A DNA stretch of 32,000 nt from assembly GCA_900234795.1 (NCBI GenBank), contig LT962688.1, forward strand, positions 2,190,001-2,222,000. The letters are read 5' to 3'. The notes under the pieces were generated by a model that searched no databases, had not been told where the DNA came from, and was given only the letters and a program-made list of their open reading frames with translations. Position 1 is the first letter of the stretch; every line of letters begins with the position of its first letter. This DNA is from Methylorubrum extorquens. GTDB lineage: Bacteria; Pseudomonadota; Alphaproteobacteria; Rhizobiales; Beijerinckiaceae. The position numbers were made by a program, and so were the translations under genes. Shown in pieces: positions 2,239 to 22,515 of this stretch.

Positions 2239-5200
2239 ATGGCTCGCTTCTTCATCGACCGGCCGGTCTTCGCCTGGGTCGTCGCCCTCTTCATTCTGCT
2301 GGGCGGCGCGCTCTCGATCCCGCAACTGCCGATCGCCCAGTACCCGATCATCGCGCCCCCCGCGATCGCGCTCTCGACCTCGTATCCCGGCGCCTCGGTG
2401 GAGAATCTCTACACCGGCACGACGCGCCTCATCGAGGACGAGCTCAACGGTGCGGCCAACATCCTGAGCTTCGAATCGGCCTCCGACTCGTTCGGCGTGG
2501 TCGAGATCACCGCGAGCTTCCAGCCCGGCACCGATCCCGGCTACGCCGGCGTCGAGGTGCAGAACCGCTTGAAGCGCGTCGAGGCGCGCCTGCCAGCCGA
2601 GGTGCGCCAGCAGGGCATCCTCGTGGAGGAGGCCTCGGCTGCGACGCTGAACATCATCACGCTCGTCTCCACCGACGGGAAGACCGACGAGGTGGGGCTG
2701 GGCGACTTCCTGATCCGCAACGTCATCAACGAGATCCGCCGCATCCCCGGCGTCGGCCGCGCGACCCTCTACTCGACCGAGCGGGCGCTGCGGATCTGGA
2801 TTGACCCGGACAAGCTGCGCGGCCTCTCGCTGAACGCCGCCGACGTGACCAAGGCGATCGGCCGGCAGAACGTGCAGATCGCCTCCGGTGCCGTCGGCGC
2901 GCAGCCGTCGCCTGAGCGCCACGCCGTCAACTTCCCCATCATCGTCAAGGGGCAGATGACCGAGCCGGAGGCGTTCGGCGCCATCGTGCTGCGGGCGAAC
3001 CCCGACGGCTCCAACGTGCGCCTGCGCGACGTCGCCCGGATCGAACTCGGCGGCGACGACTACAAGTTCACCACCCGCCTCAACGGCGGCCCGGCGGCGG
3101 GCATCTCCGTGACGCTGGCGCCCGACGGCAATGCCATCGAGACGGCGAAGGCCATCCGCGCCAAGATGGTGGAGCTGTCGCAGTTCTTCCCCGACACGGT
3201 GAAGTGGGACATCCCCTACGACATCACGCCCGCGGTCGATGCCTCGATCGAGAAGGTGCTGCACACGCTGGTCGAAGCGGTGGTGCTGGTCTTCATCGTC
3301 ATGTTCGTGTTCCTCCAGAACATCCGCTACACCCTCATCCCGACCATCGTCGTGCCGATCGCCCTGTTCGGCACCTGCACCGTCATGCTGCTCGCGGGCT
3401 TCTCCGTGAACGTGCTGACCATGTTCGGCATGGTGCTGGCCATCGGCATCCTCGTCGATGACGCCATCGTCGTCGTCGAGAACGTCGAGCGCATCATGAA
3501 CGAGGAAGGGCTGCCCCCGAAGGAGGCGACCCGGAAGGCGATGAGCCAGATCACGGGGGCGATCATCGGCATCACCCTGGTGCTGATCGCCGTGTTCATC
3601 CCGATGGCGTTCTTCCCCGGCTCGGTCGGCATCATCTACCGGCAGTTCTCGATCGCGATGGTGACCTCCATCGCCTTCTCGGCCCTGCTCGCCCTCTCGC
3701 TCACCCCGGCCCTCTGCGCCACGATGCTGAAGCCGATCGAGAAGGGGCACGGTCACGCCAAGGGCGGCGTGTTCGGATGGTTCAACCGGTTCGTCGACCG
3801 GGAGACCGCCCGATACGGCCGCGGTGTGGCATGGTTCATCCGGAAGTCCGGCCGGGTGATGCTGATCTACCTCGTGCTGGTGGCGGGCGTGGCCTACGCC
3901 TTCATGCGCCTGCCCGAGGGCTTCCTGCCGCTCGAGGATCAGGGCTTCTTCACCGTCGATATCCAGACCCCGCCGGGCTCCTCCTTCAACCGCACGGAAG
4001 CGGCGGTGAAGAAGGTCGAGGATTATCTCCTGGCCCAGCCGGGCGTGGCGACGGTCACCGTCATCAACGGCTTCTCCTTCTCCGGCCAGGGCCAGATGAC
4101 GAGCCAGGCCTTCGTCACGCTCAAGCCCTGGAGCGAGCGTGACGCGGCGAATTCCGCCGCCAAGCTGGTCGAGGGCACCAACAAGGCGCTCGGGGGCTAC
4201 AAGGATGCCGTGATCCAGGCGCTGGAGCCGCCGCCGATCGACAACCTCGGCAACGCCTCCGGCTTCTCGTTCCGCCTGCAGGACCGGGCGCAGAAGGGCT
4301 ATTCGGCGCTGATGGCGGCCCAGGAGCAACTGCTCTCGCTCGCCCGCAAGAGCCCCGTGCTGACGAAGGTCTATGTCGAGGGCCTGCCGCCCGCGCCCGA
4401 GGCCGAACTCATCATCGACCGCGAGAAGGCGGCCGCGCTTGGCGTCGATTTCGAGGACATCAACAACACGATCCAGGTCAATCTCGGCTCGGTCTACGTC
4501 AACGACTTCCCGAATCGCGGCAAGATGCAGCGCGTGATCGTGCAGTCCGAGGATCTCCAGCGCCTGCACGCGGCGGACCTGTTGAACTACTCGGTCAAGA
4601 ACGCGCAGGGGACGATGGTACCGATGTCCTCCTTTGCCGACCTGAAATGGGGCGTCGGGCCGGCCCAGATCATCGGCTTCAACGGCTACCAGTCGGTGCG
4701 CATCACCGGCGATCCGGCCCCCGGCTACACCTCCGGCGACACCATCAAGGAGATGGAGCGGCTGATGACCTTCCTGCCGAAGGGCTTCGGCTACGCCTGG
4801 ACCGGCCAGTCGCTCCAGGAGAAGGAGGCGGGCTCCCAGGCCTCGCTGCTGCTGGCACTGTCGGTGCTGATCGTGTTCCTGTGTCTGGCCGCGCTCTACG
4901 AGAGCTGGTCGATCCCGATCTCCGTGCTGCTCGTGATCCCGCTCGGCGTCATCGGCTCGGTGGCGGCGGTGTATCTGCGCGGCATGCCCAACGACGTCTA
5001 CTTCAAGATCGGGCTCATCACGATCATCGGCCTGTCGGCCAAGAACGCGATCCTGATCGTGGAGTTCGCCCGCGACCTGTGGAAGCCCGGCACCAACATC
5101 GTCCAGGCGACGATCCAGGCGGCGACGCTCCGCTTCCGCCCGATCGTGATGACCTCGCTCGCCTTCATCTTCGGCGTGGTGCCGCTGGCGATTGCCACGG

Positions 5201-16123: not shown

Positions 16124-17067
16124 CCGTTCGGCAAGTGGGTCGCCAGCGCTTCCAGCACGGCCATGCGCACGGCGACGCCCATCTCGACCTGCTCGCGGAT
16201 CAGCGACTGCGTCCCGTCGGCGATGTCGGAGGCGATCTCGACGCCGCGGTTCATCGGACCCGGATGCATCACCAGCGCGCCGGGCTTGGCCAGCGCCAGC
16301 TTGTCGCCGTCGAGGCCGTAATAGCGGAAATACTCCTTCACGCTCGGCACGAAGGAGCCGTTCATCCGCTCACGCTGGAGGCGCAGCATCATCACGATGT
16401 CGCAGCCTTTCAGCCCCGCGCGCATGTCGGTGAACACCTCGACCCCGAAGCGCTCAATGCCGGTGGGCAGCAGCGTCGAGGGGCCGATCACCCGCACCCG
16501 GGCGCCCAGCGCCTGGAGCAGGATGATGTTGGAGCGCGCCACCCGCGAATGCAGGACGTCGCCGCAAATCGCGATCTGAAGCCCCTCGATGCCGCCCTTG
16601 TTGCGGCGGATGGTGAGCGCATCGAGCAGCGCCTGGGTCGGGTGCTCGTGAGCGCCGTCGCCGGCGTTCACCACGGCGCAATCGACCTTGCGGGCGAGCA
16701 GATGCACCGCGCCCGCCGCGTGGTGGCGCACCACGATGATATCGGGCCGCATGGCGTTGAGCGTCGCGGCCGTGTCGATCAGCGTCTCGCCCTTCTTCAC
16801 CGAGGACGAGGCGACCGACATGTTCATCACGTCGGCGCCGAGGCGCTTGCCCGCGAGTTCGAACGAGGATTGCGTGCGGGTCGAGGGCTCGAAGAACAGG
16901 TTGATCTGCGTGCGGCCCCGCAGGACGGTGCGCTTCTTCTCGACCTGCCGCGACAGGGCGACGGCGGCGTCGGCGCGCTCCAGGAGCGCTTCGATGTCCG
17001 GCCGGCTCAGGCCTTCGATGCCGAGCAGGTGCCGGTGCGGGAAGGCGGGTGCGGTCTGAGCGGTCAT
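16120..17067 (-). CDS. pyrB: aspartate carbamoyltransferase catalytic subunit
   Basis: 315 aa from ATG 17067 ([29 protein letters not shown]). [13 protein letters not shown] carbamoyl-phosphate motif. HPGPMNRG near the C-terminus. Confidence 0.95.
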
Positions 17068-17341
17068 GCGGCGGTTCTGGCGTCGGCTCCGCGCTATAGG
17101 TGTCCGGGAGGGACCCGGCAAGGCGCAGGCGTGTCCGGTTGGCTGGCGCGACCGGCGCCGCGAGGAAAAATGGTCTCTCTCGGTCGCGGCTGAGAGATTT
17201 TCTTGATCATCGCGAGCCTGTGATCGAGAAAAATTTGAACGATCCGGCCTCGCTTCCGTTTTTCCAACATCTGTTGGGGTTTGCGCGCGACGAATGCCTG
17301 TCCCGGTATTCGCTGGCCGACCCGGAAACGAAGGGTAGCTC

Positions 17342-17653
17342 ATGAATACGCGACTTCTCCTGACCGCCGGTGCGCTCTCGCTCGGCCTCGCCCTCTCGTC
17401 CGGCGCCTACGCTCAGGGCATGCAGCGGGGCGGCATGGAGCCCGGCATGGGCGGCCAGCCCGGCGGGCAAATGGGTGGCCAGATGGGCGGCCAAATGCAG
17501 CAGGGCGCCATGGGCGACGACATGGGCCAGGAGCAGCGCCCGATGAAGCGCAGCTCCAAGAAGATGAAAAAGCCGATGAAGAACAAGAAGATGATGCGCT
17601 CGAAGCGCATGAATTCCGGCTCCGGCATGGAGTCCGGCGCGGGCGGGATGTAA
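17342..17653 (+). CDS. secreted methionine-rich low-complexity mini-protein (Gly/Gln/Met half plus Lys/Met half)
   Basis: RBS AAGGGTAG lies before the ATG. Sec signal [26 protein letters not shown]. 16 Met in the 79-aa mature part. GGQM x3. Codon usage is good, and a strong intrinsic terminator follows. Confidence 0.65.
17462..17497 (+). repeat. three tandem in-frame 12-nt units encoding GGQM
   Basis: ggcgggcaaatg / ggtggccagatg / ggcggccaaatg. The units differ only at synonymous third positions. Confidence 0.9.
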
Positions 17654-17701
17654 TCCACCCGTCACCCGACTGTGACCGGATCGCCATCTAGGCGATCCTC
17701 G

Positions 17702-17731
17702 GCCCGCCCGGTTAAACCGGGCGGGCTTTTT
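17702..17731 (+). terminator. rho-independent terminator of the Met-rich gene
   Basis: GCCCGCCCGG-TTAAA-CCGGGCGGGC: perfect 10-bp stem followed by TTTTT. Preceded by a second hairpin, GGATCGCC-ATCTA-GGCGATCC (17678-17698). Confidence 0.75.
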
Positions 17732-17817
17732 CGTGTCGAACCAAACCTTCCGAGTCTTCCCGCGCCGAACAGTCCATCCCCCCGGCGCGGGTTGCTGCAA
17801 CAGGGAACAGCCGCGCC

Positions 17818-18690
17818 GTGGCCGCAGGATCGACGCTCTCGGGGCCGGACATCGTCGAGACGGTGCGGCGGCGCTGGATGTTTCGCCATCCGCTGGTGAT
17901 CCGGCTGGCGCACTGGCTCAACGTGGTCTGCCTCGCCATCCTGCTGATGAGCGGGTTGCAGATCTTCAACGCCCATCCGGCGCTGTACTGGGGCGCGGCC
18001 TCGACCTTCGATAAGCCGTTCGTCGCCATCACCGACGACCAGCGGGACGACGGCACGCCGCGCGGCATCGTCTTTGTGGCCGGCCACACCTTCGACACGA
18101 CGGGGGTGCTCGGCCTGTCGAACCTCAACGGCCAGCAGGCGGGGCGCGCCTTCCCCGCCTGGGCGACCCTGCCGGCGCATCAGGATCTCGCCACCGGGCG
18201 GCGCTGGCACTTCCTGTTCGCCTGGGCTTTCGTCATCAACGGGCTGATCTACCTCCTCTACGGGATCGGGACGGGCCAGCTACGGCGGCGCCTCGTGCCT
18301 GACGGCGACCAGCTGCGCGGGTTCGGCTCCTCGATCCGCGAGCACCTGACCCTGCACTTTCCGGAAGGGGACGAGGCCAAGCGCTACAACGTGCTGCAGA
18401 AGCTCTCCTACCTCGTCGTGGTGGCGGTGCTGCTGCCGCTGATGGTGCTCACCGGGCTCGCCATGTCTCCTGGCGTCAACGCGGTGGTGCCCCTGCCCGA
18501 CCTTTTCGGCGGCCGGCAATCGGCCCGCACGATCCACTTCATCGTCACGAACCTGCTGGTGCTGTTCGTGATCATCCACGTCCTGCTCGTGCTGCTCTCC
18601 GGCGTGGTCAACAACATGCGCAGCATGATCACCGGCTGGTTCGTGATCGAGCGCCAGAAACTTCCCGCCGGCCCGGGAGAGCCCCCATGA
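17818..18690 (+). CDS. membrane b-type cytochrome subunit (cytochrome b561 / PhsC / Ni-Fe hydrogenase cytochrome b-like)
   Basis: HPLVIRLAHWLNVVCLAILLMSGLQIF, WHFLFAWAFVINGLIYL and IHFIVTNLLVLFVIIHVLLV are His-bearing TM helices. Start is GTG 17818 or ATG 17878. The stop overlaps the next gene (ATGA). Confidence 0.8.
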   Translation: MAAGSTLSGPDIVETVRRRWMFRHPLVIRLAHWLNVVCLAILLMSGLQIFNAHPALYWGAASTFDKPFVAITDDQRDDGTPRGIVFVAGHTFDTTGVLGLSNLNGQQAGRAFPAWATLPAHQDLATGRRWHFLFAWAFVINGLIYLLYGIGTGQLRRRLVPDGDQLRGFGSSIREHLTLHFPEGDEAKRYNVLQKLSYLVVVAVLLPLMVLTGLAMSPGVNAVVPLPDLFGGRQSARTIHFIVTNLLVLFVIIHVLLVLLSGVVNNMRSMITGWFVIERQKLPAGPGEPP

Positions 18691-19634
18691 CACCTCGTCT
18701 CATGACCCCCCGTCTCCACATCCCCCGCCCCCACCGCCGCGGTTTCCTCACGGCGGCGGCCGGCCTGCTCGGCGTCTCGGCGCTGGGCGGCTGCGACCGC
18801 TTCGCCGCGAGCCCGACCGGACAGCGCGCGCTGAAGGCGGGCGAGGACGCCAACCTGTTCGTGCAGCGCCTGCTGCTGACGCCGGCCTCGCTCGCCAAGG
18901 AATTCCCGGATTCGGAGATCTCGCCCTGGTTCAAGCCGAACGGCACGATCGAGCCGCCGGACCGGGCCTACAAGGCGCTCGCCGCCAAGAGCTTCGACGG
19001 GTTCAAGTTGCGCGTCGACGGGCTCGTCGAGCGGCCCCAGGATCTCAGCCTCGCCGATCTGCGGGCCCTGCCCGCCCGCACCCAGACGACGCGGCACGAC
19101 TGCGTCGAGGGCTGGAGCGCCATCGGCAAGTGGACGGGCGTGCCGCTCGCGGAGGTGCTCAAGCGGGCCGGCCTGAAGCCGAATGCCCGCTACGTCGTGT
19201 TCCACTGCGCCGACACGATGGAATACGCCATGAGCGGCGGGGAGGACGAGGCGGAACCGGAAAAGACCGCCAATCCCAGCATGGAGACGCGGCCGGAGGG
19301 GGCCGAGAATCAGGCAAGCGATTCGCAGGCCGCAGGCGCGGAGGCACCGAATGCCGAGGACGAAGCGAGCCAGGGCACGCCGGTTCGCTATTACGAGAGC
19401 ATCGATCTCACCGATGCCTACCACCCGCAGACGATCCTCGCCTACGACCTGAACGGCAAGGCGCTGCCGGTCTCGAACGGCGCGCCGCTACGCCTGCGGG
19501 TTGAGCGTCAGCTCGGTTACAAGCAGGCGAAATACATCCAGCGGATCGAGCTGACCGAGGGCCTGACCGGTATCGGCGACGGCAAGGGCGGCTACTGGGA
19601 GGACCGCGGCTACGAGTGGTACGCGGGGATTTAA
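18687..19634 (+). CDS. Tat-exported molybdopterin-dependent oxidoreductase, sulfite-oxidase/YedY(MsrP) fold, possibly lipidated
   Basis: Twin-arginine signal HRRGFLTAAAGLLGVSALGGC, which ends in a lipobox-like LGGC. RHDCVEGWSAIGKWTGVPL. PLRLRVERQLGYKQAKYIQRIEL. Low-complexity acidic insert at aa ~181-232. Confidence 0.85.
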   Translation: MTPRLMTPRLHIPRPHRRGFLTAAAGLLGVSALGGCDRFAASPTGQRALKAGEDANLFVQRLLLTPASLAKEFPDSEISPWFKPNGTIEPPDRAYKALAAKSFDGFKLRVDGLVERPQDLSLADLRALPARTQTTRHDCVEGWSAIGKWTGVPLAEVLKRAGLKPNARYVVFHCADTMEYAMSGGEDEAEPEKTANPSMETRPEGAENQASDSQAAGAEAPNAEDEASQGTPVRYYESIDLTDAYHPQTILAYDLNGKALPVSNGAPLRLRVERQLGYKQAKYIQRIELTEGLTGIGDGKGGYWEDRGYEWYAGI

Positions 19635-19782
19635 GTGCAGGTCCGGCGCGTTCACCCGATTTGACAACGCCGCGCGGCTCACCCACTTCTGCGCGGCGCG
19701 AGAGCCGGCCTCCGACCGGTACGCATCCGCGCCATTCCCAAAACCGTATCTGCGGTGAGGCTCTGGCGAGAGGCAGAGGTTC

Positions 19783-22515
19783 ATGAAAGTCGTCGTCGTC
19801 GAGTCGCCGGCCAAGGCCAAGACGATCAACAAATACCTGGGGCGCGATTACGAGGTTCTGGCCTCGTTCGGCCATATCCGCGATCTGCCGGCCAAGGACG
19901 GCTCGGTCGATCCGGAGGCCGACTTCGCCATGATCTGGGAGGTGGAGGATCGCGGCGCCAAGCGCGTGTCCGAAATCGCCCGTGCCGTGAAGGGAGCCGA
20001 GAAGCTTATCCTCGCGACCGACCCGGATCGCGAAGGCGAGGCGATTTCCTGGCACGTCATCGAGGCGCTCACCGCCCGCAAGGCGCTGAAGGGCATCCCC
20101 GTCGAGCGGGTGACCTTCAACGCCATCACCAAGGCGTCGGTCGACGCGGCGATGAAGAAGCCGCGCCAGATCGACCAAGCCTTGGTCGATGCCTATCTCG
20201 CGCGCCGCGCCCTCGATTACCTCGTCGGCTTCAACCTCTCGCCGGTGCTGTGGCGCAAGCTGCCCGGCGCCCGCTCGGCGGGCCGTGTGCAGTCGGTGGC
20301 GCTTCGCCTCGTGGTCGAGCGCGAGATGGAGATCGAGCGCTTCAAGCCGCGTGAGTACTGGTCGATCATCGCGACGCTGGTGACGGAAGCCGGCGGCGTG
20401 TTCGAGGCCCGGCTCGTCGGCGCCGACGGCAAGCGCATCCAGCGCCTCGACGTCGGCAATGCCGAGGAGGCCGCCGCCTTCAAGCGCGACCTCGAACTCG
20501 CGACCTTCCAGGTGGCGAGCATCGAGGCCAAGCCCGCCAAGCGCCATCCGCAGCCGCCCTTCACCACCTCCACGCTGCAGCAGGAGGCGTCCCGCAAGCT
20601 CGGGATGGCCCCGGCGCAGACCATGCGGGTCGCCCAGCGGCTCTACGAGGGCGTGGATGTCGGCGGCGAGACCGTCGGCATTATTACCTACATGCGAACC
20701 GACGGCGTCGACATGGCGCCGGAGGCGATCCAGGACGCGCGCCAAGTGATCGGCCGCGAGTTCGGCGACGCTTACGTCCCCGGCGCGCCGCGCAAATACA
20801 CCGTCAAGGCCAAGAACGCGCAGGAGGCCCACGAGGCCGTGCGCCCGACCGATATGGGCCGGTTGCCGAAGCACGTCGCTCGCCACCTCGAGCCGGAGCA
20901 GGCCAAGCTCTACGACCTGATCTGGACCCGCACCATCGCGAGCCAGATGGAATCGGCGGAGTTGGAGCGCACTACCGTCGAGGTGAGCGCGAATGTCGGC
21001 CCGCGCCGGATCGACCTGCGCGCCACCGGTCAGGTCGTGAAGTTCGACGGCTTCCTCGCGCTCTATCAGGAGGGCAAGGACGACGAGGAGGACGAGGACG
21101 CCAAGCGCCTGCCGGCGATGAAGGCGGGCGACGCGCTCAAGCGCGAGCGCATCGCCTCGACCCAGCACTTCACCGAGCCGCCGCCGCGCTACTCCGAGGC
21201 CAGCCTCGTCAAGCGGATGGAGGAGCTCGGCATCGGCCGGCCCTCGACCTATGCCGCGGTGCTGCAGACCCTGCGCGACCGCGAATATGTCCGCATCGAG
21301 AAGAAGCGCCTTCAGCCGGAGGACAAGGGGCGGCTCGTCACCGGCTTCCTCGAAAGCTTCTTCAAGCGCTACGTCGAGTACGACTTCACCGCGAGCCTGG
21401 AGGAGCAGCTCGACCGGGTCTCGAATGCCGAGATCGACTGGCGCTCCGTGCTGCGCGACTTCTGGCGCGATTTTTCCGCCGCGATCGGCGGCACCAAGGA
21501 ATTGCGCGTCGCGGAGGTTCTCGAGGCGCTCAACGGCCTGCTCGGGCCCCACATCTTCCCCGAGAAGGCGGATGGCGGCGATCCGCGCGCCTGCCCGACC
21601 TGCGGAGCGGGCCAGCTCTCGCTCAAGCTCGGCAAGTTCGGCGCCTTCATCGGCTGCTCGAATTACCCGGAATGCAAGTACACCCGCCAACTCTCGGCCT
21701 CCGGCGTCGAGGGCGAGGGTGACGGCTCCTCGGCCGAGGGCGGCCAGCCCGGCGTGCGCGTGCTCGGCGACGATCCGGCCACCGGCCTGCCCGTGACCCT
21801 GCGCGACGGCCGCTTCGGGCCGTTCGTGCAGCTCGGCGAGGCGAGTGCCGAGAAGGGCGCGGAGAAGCCCAAGCGCTCCTCGTTGCCCAAGGGTATGACG
21901 CCGGGCAGTGTGACGCTCGAGATCGCGCTTCGCCTGCTGTCGCTGCCCCGCGAGGTGGCCAAGCATCCCGAGACCGGCGAGCCGATCCTGGCCAATCTCG
22001 GCCGCTTCGGCCCCTACGTGCAACACGGGAAGACCTACGCCAATCTCGGCAAGGACGATGACGTGCTGGAGATCGGCGCCAACCGCGCCATCGACCTCAT
22101 CGTCGCCAAGGAGCAGGGTGGCGGACGCGGTCGCCCCTCCTCCGATCCCGGCCGCACGCTCGGCCAGCATCCGGACGGTGCCGCCCTCGTGGTCAAGGCC
22201 GGCAAGTACGGCCCCTATGTCAGCGACGGCTCGGTCAATGCGACGCTGCCAAAGACCATGGCCGCCGAGAGCCTGACGCTGGAGCAGGCGATCGACCTCG
22301 TCAACGCCAAGCGCGCGTCGGGCGGCGGCAAGAAGCCGGTCCGCAAGACGGCTTCCCGCGCCCGCGCGCCGGCGAAGAAGGCGGAGGCCGGCGAGGCGAA
22401 GAAGCCGGCCGTGCGCAAGACCGCAGCAAAGCCGGCGGCCAAGGCGACGGCGACGAAGGCCGCGGCCAAGCCGGCAGCTGCGAAGAAGGCGACGGCGAAG
22501 ACGAAGGCGGGCTGA
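19783..22515 (+). CDS. topA: DNA topoisomerase I (type IA)
   Basis: 910 aa. TOPRIM MKVVVVESPAKAKTINKYLG. Active-site region ITYMRTDG. Zn ribbon CPTCGAGQLSLKLGKFGAFIGCSNYPEC. Ala/Lys-rich tail. Confidence 0.97.
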   Translation: MKVVVVESPAKAKTINKYLGRDYEVLASFGHIRDLPAKDGSVDPEADFAMIWEVEDRGAKRVSEIARAVKGAEKLILATDPDREGEAISWHVIEALTARKALKGIPVERVTFNAITKASVDAAMKKPRQIDQALVDAYLARRALDYLVGFNLSPVLWRKLPGARSAGRVQSVALRLVVEREMEIERFKPREYWSIIATLVTEAGGVFEARLVGADGKRIQRLDVGNAEEAAAFKRDLELATFQVASIEAKPAKRHPQPPFTTSTLQQEASRKLGMAPAQTMRVAQRLYEGVDVGGETVGIITYMRTDGVDMAPEAIQDARQVIGREFGDAYVPGAPRKYTVKAKNAQEAHEAVRPTDMGRLPKHVARHLEPEQAKLYDLIWTRTIASQMESAELERTTVEVSANVGPRRIDLRATGQVVKFDGFLALYQEGKDDEEDEDAKRLPAMKAGDALKRERIASTQHFTEPPPRYSEASLVKRMEELGIGRPSTYAAVLQTLRDREYVRIEKKRLQPEDKGRLVTGFLESFFKRYVEYDFTASLEEQLDRVSNAEIDWRSVLRDFWRDFSAAIGGTKELRVAEVLEALNGLLGPHIFPEKADGGDPRACPTCGAGQLSLKLGKFGAFIGCSNYPECKYTRQLSASGVEGEGDGSSAEGGQPGVRVLGDDPATGLPVTLRDGRFGPFVQLGEASAEKGAEKPKRSSLPKGMTPGSVTLEIALRLLSLPREVAKHPETGEPILANLGRFGPYVQHGKTYANLGKDDDVLEIGANRAIDLIVAKEQGGGRGRPSSDPGRTLGQHPDGAALVVKAGKYGPYVSDGSVNATLPKTMAAESLTLEQAIDLVNAKRASGGGKKPVRKTASRARAPAKKAEAGEAKKPAVRKTAAKPAAKATATKAAAKPAAAKKATAKTKAG

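Follow-up and report, generated by a model that had tools for sequence, protein, structure and literature searches.

A methionine-rich secreted protein beside a cytochrome b and molybdoenzyme pair in Methylorubrum extorquens: a candidate methionine sink-and-repair module of the Brucella BcrXQP type

Three genes and their control elements

We studied a 32,000-nucleotide stretch of Methylorubrum extorquens DNA (contig LT962688.1, positions 2,190,001 to 2,222,000; here called the window, with positions counted from its first letter), in which three consecutive genes encode a small secreted protein rich in methionine (Met), a membrane b-type cytochrome and a molybdenum (Mo) enzyme of the sulfite oxidase (SUOX) fold. 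A sequence-only reading of this DNA had proposed that the first protein serves as a periplasmic oxidation sink and the other two as its repair system. Promoter, genes, protein motifs and terminator all lie on the plus strand. The Met-rich gene (17342..17653), an ATG-initiated open reading frame (ORF) for 103 amino acids, has a ribosome-binding site, GAAGGG, at 17330..17335, 6 nt 5' of the ATG. The signal peptide (17342-17413) ends in an AYA/QG cut, and the 79-residue mature part (17414-17650) has 16 Met (20.3%) and is built from 11 residue types in total (G20 M16 Q10 K9 S6 R5 P4 E3 A2 D2 N2), with no cysteine, histidine or aromatic residue. Three tandem 12-nt units encoding GGQM, at 17462..17497, read GGCGGGCAAATG, GGTGGCCAGATG and GGCGGCCAAATG; they differ only at synonymous sites, with the changes confined to third codon positions. 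The sequence-only reading had described the gene in these terms, and a check of the ORF and its composition bore the description out; the Lys/Met-rich half, the ribosome-binding site and the terminator that it reported are all present as well.

The number of GGQM units differs among relatives of the protein in an alignment of 10 orthologues, and across the same set the Lys/Met-rich half is the best-conserved region, with the core and the C-terminal GM kept, as is the n-h-c signal region with its AYA/Q site. The ratio of non-synonymous to synonymous change (dN/dS) is 0.05 against Methylorubrum thiocyanatum (14 synonymous and 3 non-synonymous changes) and about 0.4 against both M. organophilum and a metagenomic relative. 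The Met-rich gene is real and under purifying selection, and the suggestion that it is the peptide rather than the DNA that is conserved holds. An identical 103-aa protein in identical context is found in 10 genomes of the M. extorquens group, complete or draft, such as FP103042.2 and CP001298.1, which we take to be strains DM4 and CM4. Every named source among the 12 homologues is a Methylorubrum or Methylobacterium, and the protein matched no Pfam or NCBIfam family, with NCBIfam searched at E up to 0.1. No other credible ORF for a secreted, Met-rich product lies within the 32 kb of the window. The AlphaFold model has a predicted local distance difference test score (pLDDT) of 54 and a predicted template modelling score (pTM) of 0.14, with the signal helix as its sole structured part, and this prediction fits a disordered mature chain.

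Some annotations place a further, 68-aa ORF at 17100..17345 (+), 81 aa from its first start, which ends in an ATGA at the Met-rich start codon, and the Joint Genome Institute (JGI) calls an N-terminally extended 165-aa version of the Met-rich protein (P0001), named 'periplasmic protein CpxP/Spy'. Both are probably over-calls: the region spans the promoter island described below, and the protein is not conserved at the related loci L092 and L094.

The cytochrome gene (17818..18690; 290 aa) starts 164 nt past the end of the Met-rich gene and overlaps the Mo-enzyme gene (18687..19634; 315 aa) by ATGA. Searches with hidden Markov models (HMMs) matched the two Pfam families that the sequence-only reading had named, PF01292 (Ni_hydr_CYTB, 8e-25) for the cytochrome and PF00174 (5e-35) for the SUOX-fold Mo enzyme, and so bore out the coupled pair that it had described. 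Apart from PF01292 and a weak DUF4405 match, the cytochrome has no Pfam hit. It scores under every NCBIfam equivalog cut-off, and the best NCBIfam match is a hydrogenase b-type cytochrome, so that its earlier label of 'PhsC-like' was only loosely right. Among 76 orthologues, His24, His32, His131, His176, His240 and His254 are invariant and His53 is present in 97%. In nearly all of the 80 loci with orthologous pairs that we examined, the cytochrome gene lies directly 5' of the Mo gene, and we infer that the cytochrome supplies this enzyme with electrons from quinol.

The Mo enzyme has a twin-arginine motif, RRGFL (18735-18749), and, 3' of it, a lipobox, LGGC, with Cys36 at 18792-18794; the presumed Mo ligand is Cys139 (19101-19103) in RHDCVEGWS. 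Of the 81 sequences compared, 95% or more keep Cys36, the same holds for Cys139, and 79 have a lipobox-like motif. Because the lipobox cysteine following the twin-arginine motif is so widely conserved, the members of the family are probably lipoproteins exported by the twin-arginine (Tat) pathway, which refines the earlier statement that the enzyme is Tat-exported. The closest structure in the PDB by sequence is E. coli YedY/MsrP (1xdq; 4e-18, 28% identity), with sulfite-oxidising enzymes at 1e-7 to 1e-4, and 1xdq is also the top Foldseek match (7e-13) of an AlphaFold model of moderate quality (pLDDT 66.5). The alignment to 1xdq runs across the cysteine motif, which reads CVEAWS in the E. coli enzyme, and the protein consists of the Mo domain only, with no dimerisation domain. 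Among characterised enzymes it is thus closest to MsrP/YedY by sequence and fold, and it is not an MsrP equivalog. Its proposed reaction is the reduction of Met-sulfoxide.

The Mo domain is interrupted by an acidic, low-complexity insert (residues 184-232 approximately; 19236-19382) that is flanked by CADTMEY and PVRYYESIDL. Its length is highly variable across Methylobacterium and Methylorubrum, it is modelled at a pLDDT below 50, and it is missing from the 257-258-aa members of the family found elsewhere.

Around the locus, the minus-strand genes dprA, plsY, pyrC and pyrB come first, and the plus strand then carries the trio, in the order Met-rich protein, cytochrome b and Mo enzyme, with topA after it. 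A putative promoter of the EcfG (general stress response) type, GAAC-N16-CGTT, lies at 17237..17260, its last base 81 nt 5' of the Met-rich ATG. In an alignment of the window with loci L011, L092 and L094 this element, TTGAACGATCC-N9-TCCGTT, is the sole invariant island upstream of the gene. It fits the M. extorquens EcfG consensus, GAAC-N16,17-C/GGTT (PMC4814048), a motif with a background of 0.04 occurrences per kb on each strand, and the Met-rich gene would accordingly be read as EcfG-driven. Between the Met-rich and cytochrome genes, an intrinsic terminator occupies 17701-17727, or 17701..17737 at its widest extent; 10 of the 12 base pairs in its stem are G-C, it has a T-run, and its hairpin is conserved in L011, L092 and L094. 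An Rfam scan of 16800-20000 gave sub-threshold matches only, driven by this hairpin. There is no sigma factor or NrsF gene beside the locus.

In the upstream region of pyrB, on the pyrB side of the EcfG-type motif, there is a second hairpin (17176-17197) with a 9-bp stem and flanking T- and A-runs. Close relatives share this hairpin, which gave no significant Rfam match and could be a leader or attenuator element of pyrB or a bidirectional terminator.

Met-rich and stress genes beside orthologous pairs

Whether Met-rich ORFs with signal peptides recur beside orthologous pairs was a question raised by the sequence-only reading. We scanned 80 loci with orthologous cytochrome b/Mo pairs (47-87% identity), taking one genome per species, in a sample that covers Alpha-, Beta- and Gammaproteobacteria and some other metagenome-assembled genomes (MAGs). 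The screen accepted ORFs of 40-260 aa that begin like a signal peptide and have a Met content of 10% or more beyond residue 25. At 18 of the 80 loci, a secreted ORF on the same strand, with about 17-33% Met, lies within 600 bp of the pair, 16 of them just upstream and 2 just downstream, while no ORF of that Met density was found elsewhere in the flanks (the remaining 1.2 Mb or so of flank strands).

These ORFs group into about five sequence types. The type seen in the window occurs at L011 and also at L092 and L094. In Methylobacterium (L017-L022), a paralogous pair that is additional to the first is adjoined by a type with RMMMKKRMMRK, and an MXKDX-repeat type, some of whose members are lipoproteins, is found at L025, L029, L031, L036, L043, L049, L057 and L069; three of these MXKDX neighbours (L069, L025 and L057) pass the TIGR02953 cut-off. 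A Met-rich type with two cysteines sits downstream of the pair (L038 and L041), and at L060, a Steroidobacterales MAG, the Met-rich neighbour (3668-3958) has an EF-hand-like DTNGDGKITKEEY stretch. No significant similarity was found between the mature parts of the types (BLASTP E > 0.6), and we do not claim homology between them, as every score that an HMM of the window type gave to the others either barely differed from the bias term or was due to the signal peptide. The L060 protein also gave a weak match to lanmodulin (31 bits, cut-off 135) and may be a metal-binding variant.

Two paralogous pairs may be present in one genome with a Met-rich gene at one of them only, as in Methylobacterium sp. 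E-045 (L012 and L020), and a trio of the RMMMKKRMM type is carried on the mobilisable plasmid pME152 of M. extorquens ATCC 55366 (L095), where it adjoins catalase-family and thioredoxin-domain genes and its Met-rich protein is named hypothetical in RefSeq. In M. organophilum, the trio has been kept together despite rearranged downstream synteny.

The neighbouring ORFs of the 80 loci were clustered and representatives annotated. The recurrent families are extracytoplasmic function (ECF) sigma factors, NrsF, DUF1223, MsrB, TetR, short-chain dehydrogenases/reductases (SDR) and LysR. An ECF sigma gene is present at 16 loci, NrsF at 12 (PF06532, 6e-66, for the representative tested), DUF1223 at 8, and MsrB/SelR is adjacent or near at 5. 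Met-rich ORFs co-occur with ECF sigma genes (Fisher p = 5e-5). A promoter motif of the ECF16 type is described as GTAACC-N16-CGAA for Caulobacter SigF (PMC3511200) and as the elements TGTAAC and GCGAAA in Brucella (PMC8315932). At 23 of the 80 loci, some of them with no sigma gene nearby, such a motif precedes the operon and has the same orientation, and these 23 make up 23 of all 40 ECF16 motif occurrences, within about 7% of the sequence searched. At the Methylobacterium loci L012-L016 the SigF-type motif lies about 95 nt 5' of the cytochrome gene; in M. organophilum and a MAG, both with the window-type Met-rich gene, it overlaps the stop codon of that gene; and the window and M. thiocyanatum are both without it. 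As far as gene content and motifs tell, the context of the pair is one of envelope methionine-oxidation defence, with SigF/NrsF, SigF-type promoters and MsrB.

Two other proteins recur in these neighbourhoods. A DUF1223 protein with CSSCPP heads operons with a SigF-type promoter at L025, L029, L031, L043 and L051 (e.g., L031 3094-3822); the operons run on into a Met-rich gene (not in L051) and the cytochrome b/Mo pair, and at L025, L029, L031 and L043 sigF-nrsF comes next. The DUF1223 protein may have a thiol-redox part in this stress module. At 14 loci, mainly of Rhizobium and Neorhizobium (L034, L035, L039, L040, L042, L048, L056, L057, L061, L063, L065, L066, L075 and L082), there is a secreted protein of about 216 aa that ends in VPPM and belongs to no Pfam or NCBIfam family. 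Its gene is on the strand of the pair in 14 of 14 cases, just upstream in 13 (e.g., L035 3380-4030) and downstream in L057, often 3' of a TetR regulator, and the pair may have this protein as another partner or as a substrate.

Known counterparts and competing explanations

The closest parallel in the literature is the bcrXQP operon of Brucella melitensis, which is under the control of BcrS/AbcS (sigma-24 and DUF1109), is induced by hypochlorous acid (HOCl), and lowers survival in HOCl when deleted (PMC8315932). The Brucella authors equated BcrQP with MsrQP (PMC8315932). RefSeq names the three products MXKDX protein, 'cytochrome b/b6 domain-containing' and 'molybdopterin oxidoreductase', and their order and strand are as in the window, where the cytochrome gene likewise comes first, ATGA-coupled, with the secreted Met-rich gene immediately upstream on the same strand. 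The published bcrXQP primers encode the peptides PSYRDLAT, NPLQKL, WSTIAKW, YVVFHCF and YDWYGG (PMC8315932), for which the window has PAHQDLATG, NVLQKL, WSAIGKW, YVVFHCA and YEWYAGI; the BcrXQP peptides do not match E. coli MsrP, in which two of them correspond to WSMVVPW and YVAFET. An intermediate is provided by a Rhizobium plasmid, for which RefSeq gives the order NrsF, sigma, MXKDX protein, cytochrome b/b6 and molybdopterin-binding protein, the last of these being 47% identical to the window enzyme over its full length. Because names, primer peptides and the Rhizobium intermediate all match, we conclude that BcrQP is of the same pair family as the window and is not a canonical MsrQP, an indirect but specific link, made through primer-encoded peptides and product names. 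No Brucella protein was among the best 120 matches to the Phyllobacterium Mo enzyme, all 120 of which are at least 70% identical to it.

The two systems also share a proposed logic, in which a Met sink is sacrificed to the oxidant and a periplasmic reductase, driven by quinol, restores it. They differ in regulation and setting. The bcrXQP genes form a single transcript from an ECF16 promoter and adjoin bcrS-abcS, whereas the window has an EcfG-type motif before the Met-rich gene, a terminator after it, neither an ECF16 motif nor sigF/nrsF in 32 kb, and the housekeeping genes pyrB and topA as neighbours. BcrS-like regulation of the window locus was therefore dropped. By analogy, the trio appears to be the bleach-defence module already described in Brucella, rewired locally.

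The idea of a sink with its own reductase was established with the SigF/NrsF-controlled yedY1-yedZ1-mrpX operon of Azospira suillum, where the Met residues of MrpX were seen to become oxidised, which showed it to be a sink, and fitness data support that role (PMC4436054). Like MrpX, the window protein has a signal peptide, about 20% Met and no predicted fold, and it too is encoded with a SUOX-fold Mo enzyme and a membrane haem partner. In Azospira, however, the order is P-Q-X, the enzyme genes are annotated yedY/yedZ, MrpX is 44% charged and control is by SigF, while the window has a PF01292 partner rather than MsrQ, a protein with 24% charge and 25% Gly, and an EcfG-type motif. Any homology between MrpX and the window protein would probably escape detection, given how dissimilar the Met-rich types compared here are.

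A similar mixture of likeness and difference is seen with E. coli MsrPQ. The shared features are a SUOX-fold Mo domain standing alone, a CVE(A/G)WS cysteine ligand, twin-arginine export and a membrane b-haem donor. E. coli MsrP/YedY is a soluble periplasmic protein and has no associated Met-rich gene, whereas the window enzyme misses the MsrP cut-off and has a conserved lipobox cysteine. An MsrQ-type partner, which we take to be of the ferric-reductase-like PF01794 type, would be encoded after the Mo gene; the partner in the window belongs to PF01292 and is encoded upstream. The earlier statement that the locus is built from different parts than MsrPQ thus stands as regards the cytochrome and the unrelated Met-rich protein, and the novelty that it implied does not, given Brucella bcrXQP. 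The distinction of the BcrQP-type pair from MsrPQ seems not yet to have been drawn in the literature that we searched, and a sulfoxide-reductase review of 2026 makes no mention of such enzymes.

We regard it as probable, by a modest measure, that the trio acts in the periplasm as a methionine sink-and-repair module of the BcrXQP type, in which the regulation has been rewired and the sink protein is not homologous. The sink and repair functions proposed by the sequence-only reading are supported by the recurrence at 18 of 80 loci, by the stress-gene context and by an enzyme nearest to MsrP/YedY. Several observations weigh against such a module. The Mo enzyme scores 98.4 bits with the NCBIfam MsrP model (NF003767), for which the cut-off is 207, with SorA at 60 and SoxC at 56. 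BcrX is a TIGR02953 MXKDX protein, while the Met-rich protein of the window is not one and has no detectable homology to such proteins. The Met-rich gene and the pair look to be transcribed separately in the window, and the separate transcription of the former that had been suggested earlier fits its own EcfG-type motif and terminator. The SigF/ECF16 motif GTAAC-N15-19-CG(A/T)A is absent from the 32-kb window, relaxed patterns included, and a promoter for the pair was looked for in the window and not found. Finally, the Methylobacterium loci L012-L016, syntenic in their pyrB-topA setting, have the pair and no Met-rich gene; therefore, the pair works without it. The Met-rich gene would then be a later addition in front of an older cytochrome b/Mo pair.

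These points lead to the main rival, to which we give a minor but appreciable chance: that the Met-rich protein is a general-stress envelope protein with a role of its own, for instance as a polycationic protectant of membrane or lipopolysaccharide or as a chaperone-like protein, while the pair serves other substrates and the two adjoin without any mechanistic link. The gene's own EcfG-type motif and strong terminator, the syntenic pairs that lack it and the missing SigF-type motif of the pair all suit this explanation, as does the JGI name of the extended ORF, together with a weak Spy match (E = 0.003) of an MXKDX relative, although that similarity is weak and likely compositional. A functional link is favoured nonetheless, because the recurrence of unrelated Met-rich ORFs, of about five types and in many lineages, beside the same pair family and nowhere else in the flanks is hard to explain otherwise; it speaks equally against the mere adjacency that the sequence-only reading had kept as an alternative, and the persistence of the trio in M. 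organophilum through the rearrangement around it argues in the same direction. We think it improbable that the Mo enzyme is instead a non-Msr oxidoreductase of the SUOX family, acting on sulfite, another S- or N-oxide or a small molecule, with the Met-rich protein related to it in some other way or not at all. Its score under the MsrP cut-off, the distinct lipoprotein family and the different haem partner would allow this, and the C. crescentus SigF regulon was first discussed as sulfur metabolism (PMC3511200), but HMM scores, the PDB sequence search and fold all favour MsrP/YedY over SorA, SorT, SoxC and sulfite oxidases. The YedY-type CVEGWS motif and the lone Mo domain, with no dimerisation domain, agree with MsrP/YedY, as do neighbours that include Met-rich proteins and MsrB and a Brucella operon that protects against HOCl. 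Less probable still is that the Met-rich protein binds or buffers Cu(I) in the periplasm, in the manner of the Met-rich segments found in CueO, PcoA, PcoC and CusF, which are also periplasmic, high in Met and of low complexity. The GGQM and MxxM-like spacing resembles that of the Met-rich copper-recruiting segments that have been described (PMC11494321). However, the window protein has no His, no multicopper oxidase or cop, cus or pco gene lies near it, and the gene families that recur around the 80 loci include none for copper homeostasis; the recurrent neighbours are oxidative-stress genes, and the relatives are under SigF-type oxidative-stress control. The copper alternative offered by the sequence-only reading thus finds no support in the context.

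The proposed module and its meaning

In the sink-and-repair module that we propose, the 103-aa protein would be exported by Sec, and its disordered chain would expose 16 Met to oxidation to Met-sulfoxide by HOCl, chloramines or similar oxidants, sparing the envelope proteins. A membrane di-haem cytochrome b would draw electrons from the quinol pool and pass them to the membrane-anchored, MsrP-like Tat lipoprotein, which would reduce Met-sulfoxide to Met on the sink and probably also on other envelope proteins. In the Methylorubrum lineage, the sink would be transcribed alone, apparently from the EcfG promoter, and the SigF-type promoter that precedes the pair in relatives is missing. The anatomy of the genes, the purifying selection, the family assignments and the recurrence of the association across lineages are observed; export, oxidation of the sink, the substrate of the enzyme, the direction of electron flow and the use of the promoter are what the model would add to them.

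If the model is correct, the general stress response of Methylorubrum has a methionine 'sponge' linked to it. Persistence in chlorinated water systems and on sunlit leaves is a known trait of Methylobacterium and Methylorubrum, and such a sponge may add to their tolerance of both. We put forward more tentatively, as a view somewhat short of even odds, that the PF01292 cytochrome b and Tat-lipoprotein Mo pair is a second widespread family of quinol-driven periplasmic Met-sulfoxide reductases, distinct from MsrPQ. On this view the family would have taken up, more than once, disordered Met-rich proteins of unrelated sequence as dedicated sacrificial substrates (four or five types at the least: MXKDX, RMMMKKRMM, GGQM/KKMKK, two-Cys and EF-hand-like), and in Methylorubrum the sink would have moved from the oxidant-specific SigF (ECF16) regulon to the general stress response under EcfG. 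More than 8000 proteins match the Mo enzyme at E <= 1e-10 and are named only 'molybdopterin-binding protein' or 'molybdopterin-dependent oxidoreductase'. To treat them, together with a PF01292 cytochrome, as a family of their own and not as MsrPQ would sharpen their annotation, a step supported by the links to Met-rich proteins, SigF/NrsF and MsrB, and it would identify the real parts of Brucella BcrXQP. The independent rise of several unrelated Met-rich partners would, if true, mean that selection has acted on composition and not on sequence. The wider value of the locus lies in the evidence that its pair family differs from MsrPQ and has repeatedly acquired unrelated Met-rich partners.

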